Origin: Thermoproteota archaeon
GTDB lineage: Archaea; Asgardarchaeota; Jordiarchaeia; Jordiarchaeales; Freyrarchaeaceae
Direction of reading: 5' to 3'
NCBI GenBank assembly: GCA_029258835.1
Contig: JAPDJY010000006.1
Coordinates: 1-64,000 of the forward strand
DNA: 64,000 nt
Part shown: positions 12,820 through 64,000 of the stretch, piece by piece
Layout: each line of letters starts with the position of its first letter
How positions within the stretch are numbered: the first letter of the stretch is position 1
Program-made: the position numbers and the translations under genes
The notes under the pieces: generated by a model
Seen by the model: the letters and a program-made list of their open reading frames with translations, nothing else
Told to the model about the DNA's origin: nothing
The model's database searches: none

Positions 12820-14007
12820 CTACGTGAGCTCCTTGTGTTTCTCCTGTATTTCGTCGGCTAACCTATCTAGTTCTTTGAAGTCTCCATCCTTTGGACGCCC
12901 TTTTATAATGACGGGTTCAAGTAATTCTACCTTTAAGTTTGATAGTAGCCCTTTAATCTGTTCAAGCATTTTCCCTCCCCAACCGTAGGATCCGATCACC
13001 GACGCATACCTTAACTTCGGTCTTAATGCGTTTGCGAGGTAAACTGCATAAACGACTTTTGGGTGGGGACCTGTGAGGACGGTGGGCGACCCTACTACGA
13101 TCGTAGCCGCATCAACCAGCGCCATGGCAAGCTTTCCAATGTCCACCCTAGATAAGTCAAACCGCTTCACGGCCACCCCTCTCTCGATTAAGGCCCCTAC
13201 AAAGTAGTCAATCATTTCCTTGGTGCTGCCATGCATGGAGATGTAAGGTAGCACCACAATGTTTTTGGGTGGTGAGTAAACCCAGTCTTTATACGCTTCA
13301 AGTATGAGCTCTGGTTTATCATAGATCGGGCCATGACTTGGAGCTATAACGTCTATTTGCAGGTCCTTTATTTTCTCTAGGTTTTTCCGTATTGTATTCC
13401 TGAATGGCATCATTATCTCTGCGTAATATCTTTTAGCTGCTTCATGGATTGTTGCTTCATCACTCACGTATAAGTCTGAGGTTGCAAGGTGGGATCCAAA
13501 CAGGTCACATGTGAAAAGTATCTTATCCTCTACCAAGTACGTGAGCATAGTCTCAGGCCAGTGAACCCATGGAGCATGAATAAACCTTAATGTTCTATCT
13601 CCTAATGATACTTCCTCACGATCTTCAACGGTCCTAATCCTGTCCTCAGGGACTAGAAGCAACTCCATAAGTAAGTTCTTACATTTAGGTGTTGCAATAA
13701 CTATGGCATCTGGGTACGCCTCCAATATTTGAGGTAATGTGCCTGAATGATCCTGCTCCGCATGATTCACGACGACATAATCTATTTTTCTAACATTCAA
13801 CTCTTCTAATTGTGTTATCAACACATTGCTCATAGTCGGGTCAACAGTGTCTATTAACGCCGTCTTCTCACTTCCTTTAACTACGTATGCATTGTAGCTT
13901 GTCCCGTCGGGCAACGGGATTAGCTCGTCGAAAAGCCTCCTATCCCAATCTATAGCACCAACCCAGTAAACTCCCTTCCTTACCTCTCTAGGCTTCACAT
14001 TAATCAC
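12820..14007 (-). CDS. fprA: Flavodiiron protein FprA
   Basis: [32 protein letters not shown], flavodoxin GSYGWG. Confidence 0.95.
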
Positions 14008-59980: not shown

Positions 59981-60496
59981 CTAAGAAGCCTCAACAGAAT
60001 ACACCAGAATCATACGGTAATCCTGGTTGAACGTTACAGCGTAGGGCATCGAAGTTTCATTGCCAAACTTGGGAACCATCCCGAAGCACTGGTCAACAAC
60101 CCTCCAACCGCTAGGCCAAACATTCTTGAGCAACATCGCTGAAACGATAAGGTATCCTTCTCCCTCAACGTTTAGCGTCGCAGTCGGGTTAAACCACTCC
60201 TGAAGCCACGTTGCGCCAGAGTAGTGCCAGCCAGTAGTTCCGTTACCTACAGTGAACGCAGCCTTAACGCCAGACGAATCCACAGCAATGAACACGAACA
60301 GGATTAAATCCCCACTTTCCTGAACGTAATACGCTGGAACCCTCAGCGACAGGCTGTAGCTTGAGCAAGCCCTCGCTTGTCTTTCTCCATTCACGCTCAC
60401 CGGGGGTGCTAAGGCAAAGCCGGCAATAGATGGCGCCATTGCGACGAGTACCATTGAAACGAGCAAAAGGGCGGTAAACACCTTTAACTTCAACAT
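59981..60496 (-). CDS. Hypothetical secreted or membrane-anchored protein
   Basis: Signal-peptide-like N-terminus (KLK plus hydrophobic stretch); GGAGG RBS. Confidence 0.65.
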   Translation of the reverse strand: MLKLKVFTALLLVSMVLVAMAPSIAGFALAPPVSVNGERQARACSSYSLSLRVPAYYVQESGDLILFVFIAVDSSGVKAAFTVGNGTTGWHYSGATWLQEWFNPTATLNVEGEGYLIVSAMLLKNVWPSGWRVVDQCFGMVPKFGNETSMPYAVTFNQDYRMILVYSVEAS

Positions 60497-60644
60497 TCAG
60501 CCCTCCACTTTGCACCTCTCCAGAAAACAAAGCTACACCATAATATAACTTTAACGTAACTTCCAGATTTTCTTTCCTCATAAGGGGTATGAAGGCACGC
60601 AATCCCACATTTTGGTTTTGAAGTGGGTGTTACCCCCCTGCTGG

Positions 60645-60696
60645 GGGTGGTCCCCACCTCCACCAGCAGTTTAGGGAGGTGGTTCAGCCCTCACCC
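60645..60696 (-). promoter_or_regulatory. Eukaryote-like SECIS element overlapping the vhuU stop codon
   Basis: Helix I GGGUG/CACCC; core UGAA/GGAC (tandem G.A pairs); helix II CCACCUCC(CU)/(GG)uGGAGGUGG; unpaired AAA 11 nt after the core UGA. Confidence 0.75.
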
Positions 60697-60833
60697 AATA
60701 CTACCTCTTTCTCGGCAACTTTCCTGCCCTTGTGGTCCACCACGATTAGATGTGCTGAGCATGCCAGTCAGCAGTCATAGGCTCTCATAACCATCTCGAT
60801 CAGGTTCAGAAGCTTGGGGTCAACGTCCACCAT
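60684..60833 (-). CDS. vhuU: Selenocysteine-containing hydrogenase subunit VhuU (Sec UGA at 60768-60770)
   Basis: MVDVDPKLLNLIEMVMRAYDC-U-LACSAH-LIVVDHKGRKVAEKEVVLGEG; GGAGG RBS; supplies the C-terminal Ni-binding motif missing from vhuA. Confidence 0.92.
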
Positions 60834-60885
60834 TAATCAATCCCTCCACAACTTTTCATCCAAATTGGGAAAACCCTTATGCGTC

Positions 60886-62214
60886 CTACTTAAACCATGG
60901 TTCTGGAAACTTTAACTTCTCGTGTATTTTATCCTCGAATATCTGCTTCGCTGTAACTAGCATCGACTTCTCCACTGCTGCGATGTTATTGTTTGTTGCC
61001 ACGATCAGGTTCGCCTTCTTTATCACTCCCTCGTCATCCGTCCAGTAGTTGTAGATGAGCGTCCCTCTGGGGGCCTCAACGATCGCTACCCCCACGCCCT
61101 CCTTCGGAGTCACCGTTTCAAGCTTAACGTCGGCACTAACTATTTCAGGATCCTCTAGCAGCTTCTTAGCTTTTTCAACAGCCTGAACCAGCTCGATTAT
61201 CCTAGCCCAGTTGTAGGCAAGAGTTGCATGGCATGGTCTCCCAACAGTGTCCCTGAACTCCTTAAGGAGCTCCTGGGCTTTCGGCGTCTCCATCCTGTCG
61301 GCAACGTTGATCCTCGCCAGTGGACCTGCACGCCATATTCCGTCAGGGTAGCCGGCAGGCTTAAAGAAGATGTGCGTAGCGTACGAGTGAGGGGCGACAC
61401 GCTCTCCGGCGTACTTGAGGTAGTCCCCCTTCGGGAAGTCCGCTGCAACCTTACCGTCAGGGTCCATGACTCTAACCGTCGCCTTGGGATCATAGATTGT
61501 GTGAACTCCCTCAACGTTCAAGCCAATGTAATATGTGGGCACAACTCCGAGCTTCGTGATCACGTCAAGGTATCCTTCAACGATCTTCCTCGTCACTTCA
61601 ACGGTGAAATCAGCCAGTTCCTCGCCCTCATTGACCAGTTTAAGCAGCTCATCCCTTTCCTCCTCGGTTAACCGTTTAGCCATTCCTCCCGGAATCCCCG
61701 TGACAGGGTGGACAGAGCGGCCGCCCACATACCTGCAGATCGTCTGACCAACACGCATAAGAGCTATAGCCTTCTTAGCAGCGTCAGGCATGTTCTTGAT
61801 TATCCCAACAAGGTTCCTTACGGATGGATCGGCGAATGGACCAGCCAGAAAGTCTGGTGCGGCTAGAGCATAAAAGTGCAGTGCATGACTTGAAATCTGC
61901 TTACCCTGCATTAAAAGGTCTCTAAGCTTCACCGCTGCAGAGGGTGGAGTAACATCCCATGCAGCCTCAACAGCCTCTAAGCTGCATACGTGATGGGGCT
62001 CAGGGCATATCCCACAGATCCTCGGAGTCAGCCGTGGAGCCTGCTCTGCGAGACGCCCTTCAAGAAACTTCTCAAACATGCGTGTGAGAGTGATGCTAAA
62101 CATCAGGTCGTCCACTTCGCCCCTCTCGTTCAGCTTAAGAACTATTTTCGCATGACCCTCAAGCCTCGTCGCAGGCTCAATAACAATAGTCCTTTCCTCA
62201 CCCATTTTCCCCAC
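60886..62214 (-). CDS. vhuA: F420-non-reducing [NiFeSe] hydrogenase large subunit, N-terminal part
   Basis: TRLEGH, RICGICPEPH, EAPRGTL, IVAT; ends without DPCxxCxxH. Confidence 0.93.
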   Translation of the reverse strand: MGKMGEERTIVIEPATRLEGHAKIVLKLNERGEVDDLMFSITLTRMFEKFLEGRLAEQAPRLTPRICGICPEPHHVCSLEAVEAAWDVTPPSAAVKLRDLLMQGKQISSHALHFYALAAPDFLAGPFADPSVRNLVGIIKNMPDAAKKAIALMRVGQTICRYVGGRSVHPVTGIPGGMAKRLTEEERDELLKLVNEGEELADFTVEVTRKIVEGYLDVITKLGVVPTYYIGLNVEGVHTIYDPKATVRVMDPDGKVAADFPKGDYLKYAGERVAPHSYATHIFFKPAGYPDGIWRAGPLARINVADRMETPKAQELLKEFRDTVGRPCHATLAYNWARIIELVQAVEKAKKLLEDPEIVSADVKLETVTPKEGVGVAIVEAPRGTLIYNYWTDDEGVIKKANLIVATNNNIAAVEKSMLVTAKQIFEDKIHEKLKFPEPWFK

Positions 62215-63129
62215 CTACTTCCTCCTGTCAGTTACCGCCCTCGGTATTATCGCTGATGGAAGAGTAAACCTGCTGAACGTGCCGACAACATCCTTAACAG
62301 CCTTAACAAGCTCCTCAGGACTGACCGACTCGTAATCCACAATCGACGCCAGCGCGCTAAGCATCTTAGCCCCCTGATCCAACACGTTAGGCCCGGGACC
62401 CATACACCCCTTGCAAGGGACCCCCGCAGACGGACACACCGCGCCGCACCCCGCCCTAGTCGCAGGACCCATGCAGATGTACCCTTGCTCCAGCAGGCAC
62501 TTCTCAGGGTCAGGTATGCCCTCAAAGTCCCTCTTAATCTTCTTAACAACCACAACGTCCGATTTAACACGTGGACACTCGTCGCAAAGGGTTCTCTCCT
62601 TAAGCTTCGGCATCTCTCCTTTAAGGAGGCTAGTTAAAACCTCCGCTATCAGCTTAGGCTCAGGAGGACACCCCGGCACTAACAAGTCATACTTGACGAT
62701 GGACGGATTCGGCTTCACGTAGTCAAGCATCTTGGGAACCACCCTGTCGGGTATCCTCCCATCAACTACGCTCTCAGCCTCCATGAACTTACGCCTCAAA
62801 GCCTCATCGATAGGGTAGAGGTTCAGAAGCGCCGGAAGCCCCCCGAAAGTGGAGCATGCACCATAAGAAACCAGCATTTTACACTTCTGACGTGCAAGCT
62901 TCAACAAGTGAACATCCTCTTCCGTCCTGCAGAAACCCTCTGTGAGGCCAAGATCCACCGAGCCGTCGGGGAGCCCCTCAAGATCCTTAAACTTATAATC
63001 CACGACAGTATGCCAAAAAACTATGTCAAGCTGCGGGATCACATCGAGCAACGCCTCATGCAAGTCTAATAGACTCTGCCAACAACCCCAACAGCTACTG
63101 AGCTGAATGAATGCTACCTTAACTGGCAT
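62215..63129 (-). CDS. mvhG: F420-non-reducing hydrogenase small subunit
   Basis: SSCWGC, GAC, PGCPP, CDECP, CLL.QG.ICMGP.T.AGC...C....PC.GC. Confidence 0.93.
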   Translation of the reverse strand: MPVKVAFIQLSSCWGCWQSLLDLHEALLDVIPQLDIVFWHTVVDYKFKDLEGLPDGSVDLGLTEGFCRTEEDVHLLKLARQKCKMLVSYGACSTFGGLPALLNLYPIDEALRRKFMEAESVVDGRIPDRVVPKMLDYVKPNPSIVKYDLLVPGCPPEPKLIAEVLTSLLKGEMPKLKERTLCDECPRVKSDVVVVKKIKRDFEGIPDPEKCLLEQGYICMGPATRAGCGAVCPSAGVPCKGCMGPGPNVLDQGAKMLSALASIVDYESVSPEELVKAVKDVVGTFSRFTLPSAIIPRAVTDRRK

Positions 63130-63142
63130 GTTAAAACCTCCA

Positions 63143-63559
63143 TTATCCTTTTCGAAGCGGGCTTGGCCCAAGCTCCTTAAGTTTTTTAACAAATTCTTCG
63201 ACTGCGTTTACGAGCTCTGCCCCCTCGCTTGCCGATATCCATTTAAGCATTAACCTGTCGGGGTTTAAGCCTAGCTGATGTAGCATCGCCCTTAAGAGGG
63301 CGATCCTGCGTTCAGCACGGTAATTTCCTCTGACGTAGTGGCAATCTCCGGGATGGCAGCCGGCAACTAGGACGCCGTCGGCGCCCAGCTCGAAGGCTTT
63401 CAGGACGAATTGGGGGTCGACTCTGCCGCTGCATAAAACTCTGATGATTCTGATGTTTGGCGGGTACTGCATCCGGCTCGTGCCGGCCATGTCGGCTCCT
63501 GCGTAACTGCACCAGTTACAGAAGATGCCTAGGATCTTGGGTTCGAAGCCGTCGCTCAT
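63143..63559 (-). CDS. mvhD: Hydrogenase [2Fe-2S] subunit MvhD/VhuD, all-cysteine form
   Basis: FCNWCSYAGAD, CSGRV, GCHPGDCHY, WISASEG. Confidence 0.95.
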   Translation of the reverse strand: MSDGFEPKILGIFCNWCSYAGADMAGTSRMQYPPNIRIIRVLCSGRVDPQFVLKAFELGADGVLVAGCHPGDCHYVRGNYRAERRIALLRAMLHQLGLNPDRLMLKWISASEGAELVNAVEEFVKKLKELGPSPLRKG

Positions 63560-63882
63560 TTCCATCATCTCCTTCATATAGTGAGGGGATGGTAAAGGTA
63601 AAAACTCGTATTTCACGAGCTTCTTTCCTTATTTTAAAGTTTCGGGAGAGGCTGCGTGTCACCCTTTAAGGCTGAAGCCATAGGTGGCTGCCATGTTTCT
63701 TAGGTCGTTGAGGTGGGGAACGGTGGAACATGTTTTTTCAACTTTGTTGCGAGACGTCGGCTCGGAGGGATTCTGGGCTTTCAGCGGAAAAGATAAATAT
63801 TTTTAGTAGTCTTAAGTTGGTTGCGTTAGGGGGGCTCCCCCCGCAGCTGCATGGTTACTTTAAAGCTTGAAGGAGGCTCTTT

Positions 63883-64000
63883 ATGGGTGAGAAGGTGGGC
63901 GAGGAACCGCGGGTAGGCGTTTTCATATGTCATTGCGGCACCAACATTGCCGGCGTAATAGATGTTGAGGAACTGGTCAGGTATGCTTCGAAGCTTCCCG
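63883..64000 (+). CDS. hdrA: Heterodisulfide reductase subunit A, N-terminus (partial)
   Basis: MGEKVGEEPRVGVFICHCGTNIAGVIDVEELVRYASKLP; GGAGG RBS. Confidence 0.92.
   Translation, partial: MGEKVGEEPRVGVFICHCGTNIAGVIDVEELVRYASKLP

Follow-up and report, generated by a model that had tools for sequence, protein, structure and literature searches.

A predicted eukaryote-like SECIS whose core UGA is the stop codon of vhuU in a Jordarchaeia (Asgard) archaeon

We interpret a minus-strand RNA element of the window (the whole stretch of 64,000 nucleotides that was analysed, from contig JAPDJY010000006.1) as the SECIS of the vhuU mRNA in an Asgard archaeon of the class Jordarchaeia, belonging to the published eukaryote-like kind known as lokiSECIS or Asgard type I; we predict that it directs the insertion of selenocysteine (Sec), and put the probability of this reading at about 0.88. 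An accessory hairpin (60647-60634) and a closing helix (60697-60692 / 60629-60624) most likely turn the element into a three-way junction, the 5′ strand of which consists of the last vhuU codons. The eukaryote-like SECIS, and the use of a single UGA as both its core and a stop codon, extend with this element to Jordarchaeia.

The vhuU gene, its operon and its two UGA codons

On the minus strand of the window, the hydrogenase genes follow each other in the order vhuD, vhuG, vhuA and vhuU:

63143 to 63616, minus strand: vhuD/mvhD, Cys form without an in-frame TGA (PF02662, FlpD, 190 bits)
62215 to 63192, minus strand: vhuG, hydrogenase small subunit (PF01058)
60886 to 62214, minus strand: vhuA, large subunit without the C-terminal Ni-binding motif (PF00374, NiFeSe large subunit, 96.7 bits)
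60684 to 60833, minus strand: vhuU, selenoprotein gene for the C-terminal piece of the [NiFeSe] hydrogenase large subunit (49 codons; stop included in the coordinates)
60768 to 60770, minus strand: Sec codon UGA of vhuU (codon 22), at the first Cys position of a DPCxxC-type Ni-binding motif

VhuA is 82–85% identical to its relatives in Candidatus Jordarchaeum and Jordarchaeia MAGs, with 85% identity to that of Ca. Jordarchaeum sp. LHC_1308. As deduced from the sequence and the frame, vhuU starts at the ATG in 60833-60831 of the minus strand, and its product ends in RAYDCULACSAH, where U is the in-frame UGA, followed by a tail of 21 residues. Pfam gives no match for this 49-residue peptide; an in-frame TGA occurs at the identical position in all vhuU orthologues. 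The stop UGA (60686-60684) lies 84 nt, or 27 codons, past the Sec UGA, and the coordinates agree with the claim of a previous sequence-only reading of this DNA that this stop is at the same time the core UGA of a SECIS. In a metatranscriptomic run, contigs span 60717-60963, which covers the vhuA-vhuU junction and the Sec codon and not the SECIS, at a depth of ca. 2.5 that might include DNA carry-over; the sequencing runs contain no variants within the SECIS element.

Beside the operon, the window also contains the start of an hdrA gene (63883-63999, plus strand), reading ...VFICHCGTNIAG. Both the hdrA and the vhuD of the operon are Cys forms, and Sec forms of hdrA-vhuD are found on contigs C31 and C7 of the same genome.

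Anatomy of the SECIS core and upper arm

The 52 minus-strand letters that the sequence-only reading gave for 60645-60696 are exactly those of the sequence, and they can be divided into the following parts:

60686 to 60690, minus strand: GG 60690-60689, pairing with CC 60650-60649, and a 3-nt k-turn-type bulge, G-C-U 60688-60686 (constrained fold and structure evaluation)
60684 to 60686, minus strand: UGA, the vhuU stop and the 5′ half of the SECIS core (U-G-A columns invariant in a 12-sequence alignment)
60675 to 60683, minus strand: helix II, 5′ arm, A followed by CCACCUCC (ca. 97% of cells paired; both-sided changes in six of nine pairs)
60662 to 60674, minus strand: apical loop of 13 nt, CUAAACUGCUGGU, with the conserved AAA 60672-60670 (three A columns invariant in 12 of 12 aligned sequences)
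60653 to 60661, minus strand: helix II, 3′ arm, GGAGGUGG followed by G (alignment pair counts and consensus)
60651 to 60652, minus strand: GA, the 3′ half of the SECIS core ([G/A]A in every orthologue)

The two halves of the core would be held together by sheared pairs between G60685 and A60651 and between A60684 and G60652. From k-turn rules we also infer the geometry of the bulge at 60688-60686, in which the base before UGA (C60687) would be the second bulge nucleotide; by the same rules, a pyrimidine at this place appears structurally plausible.

Reading and comparison thus bear out that the element is of the eukaryote or Loki type, with a tandem G.A core formed by UGA...GA, a helix II and an unpaired AAA, which is situated, as had been claimed, 11 nt past the core UGA (60672-60670). 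A helix II of approximately 10 bp had also been proposed; the helix is there, but it spans nine positions, with eight Watson-Crick pairs and an A.G at the first position. The upstream strand falls inside the last vhuU codons, in agreement with the view that the 5′ arm is coding, and an upper helix of 8–9 positions together with a 3′ side reading GGA sets the element apart, as anticipated, from the GAA/A type of Methanococcales.

Comparative evidence for the SECIS fold

Thermodynamics alone do not mark out the SECIS, and a single-sequence z-score is not discriminating in such GC-rich sequence. The 81-nt context has a z of -0.62 and a different fold as its MFE, the isolated 83-nt element has a z of -1.64 and, in longer context, the nearest-neighbour MFE favours a non-SECIS fold by 1–7 kcal/mol in this particular sequence. 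The evidence that lifts the SECIS fold above chance, which we consider strong, is instead comparative.

The fold, defined by a nine-position helix, the loop AAA and a 3′ [G/A]A, occurs after vhuU in all 11 Jordarchaeia genomes. A covariance model, built from only five sequences of one family of these elements (f1), recovers six orthologues of a different family (f2), with E values from 6e-8 to 2e-4, as well as the hdrA-vhuD SECIS on contig C31 of this genome (E 4e-4). In the 12-sequence alignment, 97.6% of the cells pair, versus 46–58% when the partners are slid, and both-sided changes are seen in eight pairs overall, six of them within the nine pairs of helix II; none of 500 shuffles reaches any of the observed measures. 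These pair counts come from the model-based alignment A5, which leans toward the structure of the model, and the RNAalifold consensus agrees with it; MAFFT alignments A1, A2, A7 and A8, in which the 3′ arm was split or shifted by one column between families, were left out of the counts. None of the 12 aligned sequences departs from the UGA, the three A's of the loop or the final A of [G/A]A. Conservation and covariation of the fold after orthologous vhuU genes, by which the sequence-only reading proposed that it be judged, are therefore both found, in 11 of 11 genomes and in six of nine helix pairs, respectively.

A strict motif scan of the 2.72-Mb genome returned five matches, versus zero to one in shuffled sequences, and three of these are situated behind genes with an in-frame TGA, namely vhuU, vhuD and selD. 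The vhuD SECIS, on contig C31, has an AUGA core and a loop starting with UGAAAG, and the selD SECIS, on contig C82, has a GUGA core and a type II loop. The fold that the sequence-only reading suggested looking for behind other UGA-containing genes, such as hdrA and selD, is thus seen after hdrA-vhuD and after selD.

Elsewhere in this genome (G000), a second Sec-type vhuD on contig C7 ends in ...LKREANEPEGGNP before its stop, and its eight final codons overlap with a SECIS-like element of the AUGA...GA form (ca. 13405-13520, plus strand); here the UAA stop lies in the apical region and is followed by a hairpin with an AAGCG loop. Another strict-scan match, on contig C32 (ca. 13592, minus strand), is a UUGA type II SECIS-like element with the stem AAGUUUCCG/UGGAAACUA and the loop GAAACAUCC..GGAUGA, with no recognisable selenoprotein frame upstream.

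The Rfam SECIS models gave no match over the whole window at the gathering score or, at E ≤ 10, over 60400-61000, so the eukaryotic models that the sequence-only reading had proposed as a check do not find the element. The model R1 found only three of 20 loci from other Asgard families, being too lineage-specific. Within the spacer that follows vhuU (60515-60589, minus strand), Rfam gives weak matches resembling C/D boxes, ceN28 with 17.8 bits and SNORD65 with 14.8 bits (E 0.6–2), far below threshold.

A probable accessory hairpin and closing helix

Three further segments make up the lower part of the element:

60692 to 60697, minus strand: 5′ strand of the closing helix P1, UGGGUG, in codons 46-48 (L-G-E), pairing with 60629-60624 in both the MFE and the centroid of the isolated element
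60634 to 60647, minus strand: accessory hairpin P3, CCCCC-AGCA-GGGGG, 3 nt past the core GA
60624 to 60629, minus strand: 3′ strand of P1, CACCCA, which closes the three-way junction (folding and structure evaluation)

The accessory hairpin is present in all 29 Asgard vhuU elements. Its stem takes at least 10 different sequences (CCCC/GGGG, GCCC/GGGC, ACCU/GGGU, CUCU/AGAG and GCGU/ACGC, among others), its loop is of the GCA type, CGCAA in 12 of them, and it scores higher than shuffled controls. It also occurs, with other stem sequences, behind the selD SECIS and both vhuD SECIS elements of this genome. For the isolated 83-nt element, the three-way junction is both the MFE and the centroid, with -38.2 kcal/mol.

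A helix equivalent to P1 varies between U-A, U.G and C-G in family f1 and comprises 8–11 bp in family f2. The closing helices are AGGGUAU/AUACCCU, GGGU/GCCC and GGGC/GCCC in genus g2, and AGAGAUUG/CAAUCUCU in genus g3; in other Asgard families they reach 10–14 bp, as in GGAGC..GUGAC..GGCG / CGCC..GUCAC..GCUCC. Matched arms give lower energies than mismatched ones (-18.5 versus -13.4 kcal/mol), in a comparison that is confounded by kinship. An outer closing helix is likely across Asgard vhuU SECIS, as judged by duplex energies and direct reading, with few independent changes within the class.

The sequence-only reading had placed helix I between GGGUG 60696-60692 and CACCC 60649-60645. This pairing clashes with the conserved hairpin at 60647-60634, and the distal pairing is the one found in the MFE and the centroid; the partner of the 5′ strand is thus probably the distal CACCCA (60629-60624), reached across the accessory hairpin in a three-way junction. 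More generally, we propose a three-armed, k-junction-like architecture for the SECIS of Asgard vhuU, composed of a closing helix (the last ca. eight vhuU codons with the 3′ flank), a kink-turn arm and an accessory hairpin with a GCA(A) loop, in which the core drifted to YUGA in Jordarchaeia and the stop was uncoupled in a sister genus; for this proposal as a whole we see even chances. The main texts of Mariotti et al. 2016 (PMC4989117) and Huang et al. 2024 (PMC11227280) describe no junction and no second hairpin.

Alternative explanations

The sequence-only reading envisaged a two-helix SECIS with the proximal helix I (60696-60692 / 60649-60645), which would toggle, as a switch, with an exclusive hairpin formed by CUGCUGG 60669-60663 and CCAGCAG 60644-60638 plus GGUGG/CCACC. 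This sequence permits either pairing, folding of the 81-nt context yields the alternative hairpin as the MFE (-32.3 kcal/mol) and the proximal RCCC tracks a U-to-C change in one orthologue, G004. However, the proximal helix I would use up nucleotides of the hairpin that is seen in 29 of 29 Asgard elements, family f2 is without any proximal partner and, over the same 83 nt, the two-helix fold reaches -19.6 kcal/mol versus -33.7 to -38.2 kcal/mol for the junction. The switch fares no better, because the complementarity CUGCUGG/CCAGCAG is missing in all orthologues, whose apical loops read CGAAACGCCGU, CAAAAUAACGGCGC, UGAAACCCC and similar, and helix II of the SECIS survives wholly or mostly in the free MFE of nine of 11 orthologue elements, five of which fold identically whether or not this helix is enforced. 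We consider this toggling design improbable, and treat the alternative hairpin as a by-product of the repeated G/C-rich words of this sequence.

Two other explanations question what the UGA or the hairpin stands for. The frame remains open for 17 further codons past the stop UGA, with a SECIS nearby, so that this second UGA (60686-60684) might itself be Sec, or be read through, and extend VhuU to the UAA at 60632-60630. This is very unlikely: the downstream frame is not conserved, with another in-frame UGA three codons later in family f2 and a UAA after the same 27 codons in genus g2, the 27-codon tail has a fixed length across 30 loci, and the second UGA sits inside a SECIS core that the ribosome must by then have unwound, an argument also made in PMC4989117. 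Reading of the stop as a second Sec was rejected on the grounds of the downstream frame. Least probable of all is a structure unrelated to Sec, be it a GC-rich hairpin that arose by chance, a kink-turn like those of C/D-box sRNAs or an intrinsic terminator. The z-scores are indeed unremarkable (-0.62 and -1.64), a loose version of the motif arises by chance a few times per 4 kb and Rfam matches sR10 weakly over 60657-60716 (12.9 bits, E 1.1), but this score is far under the 45-bit threshold of sR10, and covariation and the invariant UGA, AAA and [G/A]A columns argue against a chance hairpin, as do its constant place after an in-frame-UGA gene in over 25 lineages and the recurrence of this design at the other selenoprotein genes of the genome. 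A SECIS of the Asgard kind is thus our preferred reading.

The stop codon in the SECIS core across Asgard archaea

In a protein search, 226 of 301 Asgard genomes had relatives of VhuU, amounting to well over 100 loci and, among the matches listed, nearly all contain one in-frame TGA. In the 30 Asgard loci that were fetched (L041-L070), the distance from the Sec UGA to the stop is invariably 84 nt, and the stop UGA is the core UGA of the SECIS in 26 of them; the same holds for this genome and for all six genomes of genus g3. This layout looks ancestral for Asgard vhuU, given that the spacing from Sec to stop is fixed at 27 codons in 30 loci.

In the sister genus g2 (Jordarchaeum; L042-L044), the 27 codons end in a UAA stop, which an AUGA core follows at a distance of 21–25 nt. 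Its whole SECIS, with a canonical AUGA, is thus in the 3′ UTR, and this natural separation of stop from core suggests that their overlap is tolerated, and not required.

The core UGA is preceded by the third (wobble) position of the last Gly codon. This base is C in this window, U or C in the six g3 genomes, and A in g2 and in 19 of 19 loci of other Asgard families; eukaryotic and Asgard cores described so far have A, rarely G, at this place (AUGA or GUGA), which is absent here. In all 19 loci from outside Jordarchaeia, the final letter of the last sense codon is A, implying that RNA structure imposes selection on this wobble base.

Selenocysteine machinery of the genome

The assembly (2.72 Mb, 94.7% complete) contains SepSecS (484.7 bits), a fragment of SelB (296.9 bits) where a contig ends, a PSTK-like gene whose 152 bits fall under the curated cut-off, a selD with an in-frame TGA and two vhuD paralogues, on contigs C31 and C7, with two TGA each. 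Published work already documents the use of Sec in Jordarchaeia (PMC9723677; PMC11227280, where one genome of Jordarchaeia encodes a VhuU with Sec).

In this genome, RF01852, aragorn with and without introns, a pattern search and a cmscan of C13:1-20000 did not detect a tRNA-Sec; with intron search included, only 25 tRNAs were recovered. RF01852 did not retrieve a tRNA-Sec from any of the 11 genomes of the class either, and its matches resemble tRNA-Leu(UAA). The tRNA-Sec of MAG LHC_bin_1308 is drawn in PMC9723677, and this MAG may be one of the 11 genomes in which we detected none. Because the same search fails in every genome of the class, the absence of tRNA-Sec counts as a weak negative.

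Only two genes of the L7Ae family (PF01248) are found in the genome, with 127 codons, the size of ribosomal proteins. Published searches for SBP2 in Asgard archaea found none (PMC4989117, PMC11227280).

A model for the decoding of both UGA codons

When a ribosome stands on the Sec UGA (60770-60768), the junction, which starts 73 nt downstream, would still be intact on the free 3′ end of the mRNA and could, via a putative kink-turn-binding archaeal SECIS factor and/or aSelB, direct Sec-tRNA(Sec) to UGA-22. Upon translation of the last ca. eight codons (43-49), the ribosome would unwind the closing helix and the core, so that UGA-50 would enter the A site in the absence of a SECIS, recruit a release factor and be read as a stop.

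The overlapped vhuU codons encode the C-terminal tail past the conserved His. In the large subunits of [NiFe] hydrogenases, the tail that follows the conserved His is removed by a maturation protease. The peptide should then constrain the RNA only weakly, since the overlapped codons encode a tail that would be cleaved in maturation, and the RNA would be free to evolve under it. That a ribosome reaching the stop has already melted the SECIS, as the sequence-only reading proposed, we count as supported, and Mariotti et al. 2016 drew the same inference (PMC4989117).

Comparison with known systems

The stop-in-core layout in vhuU is not new, because it was already published for Asgard archaea in 2016. 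Mariotti et al. (PMC4989117) reported that the core UGA of the Lokiarchaeota VhuU.1 SECIS doubles as the stop, and argued that UGAs so close to a SECIS escape being recoded by it; Huang et al. 2024 (PMC11227280) generalised the overlap of SECIS and stop in Asgard archaea. Our element shares with the lokiSECIS of VhuU.1 the vhuU gene, the kink-turn-type core UGA...[G/A]A, a stem of nine positions, the A-rich start of the loop and a core UGA that is the stop. It differs from it in the core, CUGA here and AUGA in Loki, in the 3′ half of the core, GA here and AA in Loki VhuU, in the loop, with 13 nt (CUAAA...GGU) versus 11 nt (AAAAA...AG), and in the A.G at the first position of the stem. The main text of PMC4989117 presents a single stem-loop, and describes neither an accessory hairpin nor a closing helix as seen here.

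The type I model for eSECIS-like elements of Asgard archaea (PMC11227280) comprises a GA_[G/A]A core, an upper stem of 7–15 bp with at most two mismatches and an apical loop of 8–20 nt, and our element falls within it; it is likewise located at the 3′ end of a selenoprotein gene of the frhA/vhuU type, in a genome with Sec enzymes. The main text of that paper considers only AUGA and GUGA cores, does not contain the term CUGA and includes no three-way junction. Its motif for the frhA lower stem, [U/C]GG_C[C/U][A/G], is matched by genus g2 with UGG_CCA, and by this window with GG_CC only.

With the eukaryotic SECIS of type I (SECIS_1, RF00031), the element has in common the tandem sheared G.A core, helix II, an unpaired AAR ca. 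11 nt from the core and a UGA upstream. In contrast to eukaryotic elements, it has no Rfam match, carries C instead of A/G before UGA, has a shorter helix II and overlaps a coding region, where its eukaryotic counterparts are placed in a long 3′ UTR; no SBP2 is known from Asgard archaea. The SECIS would resemble the eukaryotic type in its working but belongs to the Asgard kind. The SECIS of Methanococcales and Methanopyrus occupies the 3′ end of the same selenoprotein gene family, also in an archaeon; unlike these GAA_A elements, ours is without a long GC lower stem, a GAA/A bulge or an upper stem of 3–6 bp, and its 3′ side is GA instead of a single A. The k-junction of Wang et al. 2014, a paper cited as ref. 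69 in PMC11227280, is reportedly a kink-turn to which a third helix, placed on the non-bulged strand, is added so that a three-way junction results; this topology resembles the junction proposed here at the level of secondary structure.

In all, the accepted picture is unchanged, and what our analysis adds to it is incremental: the YUGA core, the sister genus with an uncoupled stop and the three-armed architecture. The pyrimidine before the core UGA, the separation of stop and core by 21–25 nt in g2 and the conserved third arm, absent from published models, are natural variants useful for dissecting the signal. The accessory arm and the closing helix, should they prove necessary for function, would offer handles toward the missing archaeal SECIS-binding factor.
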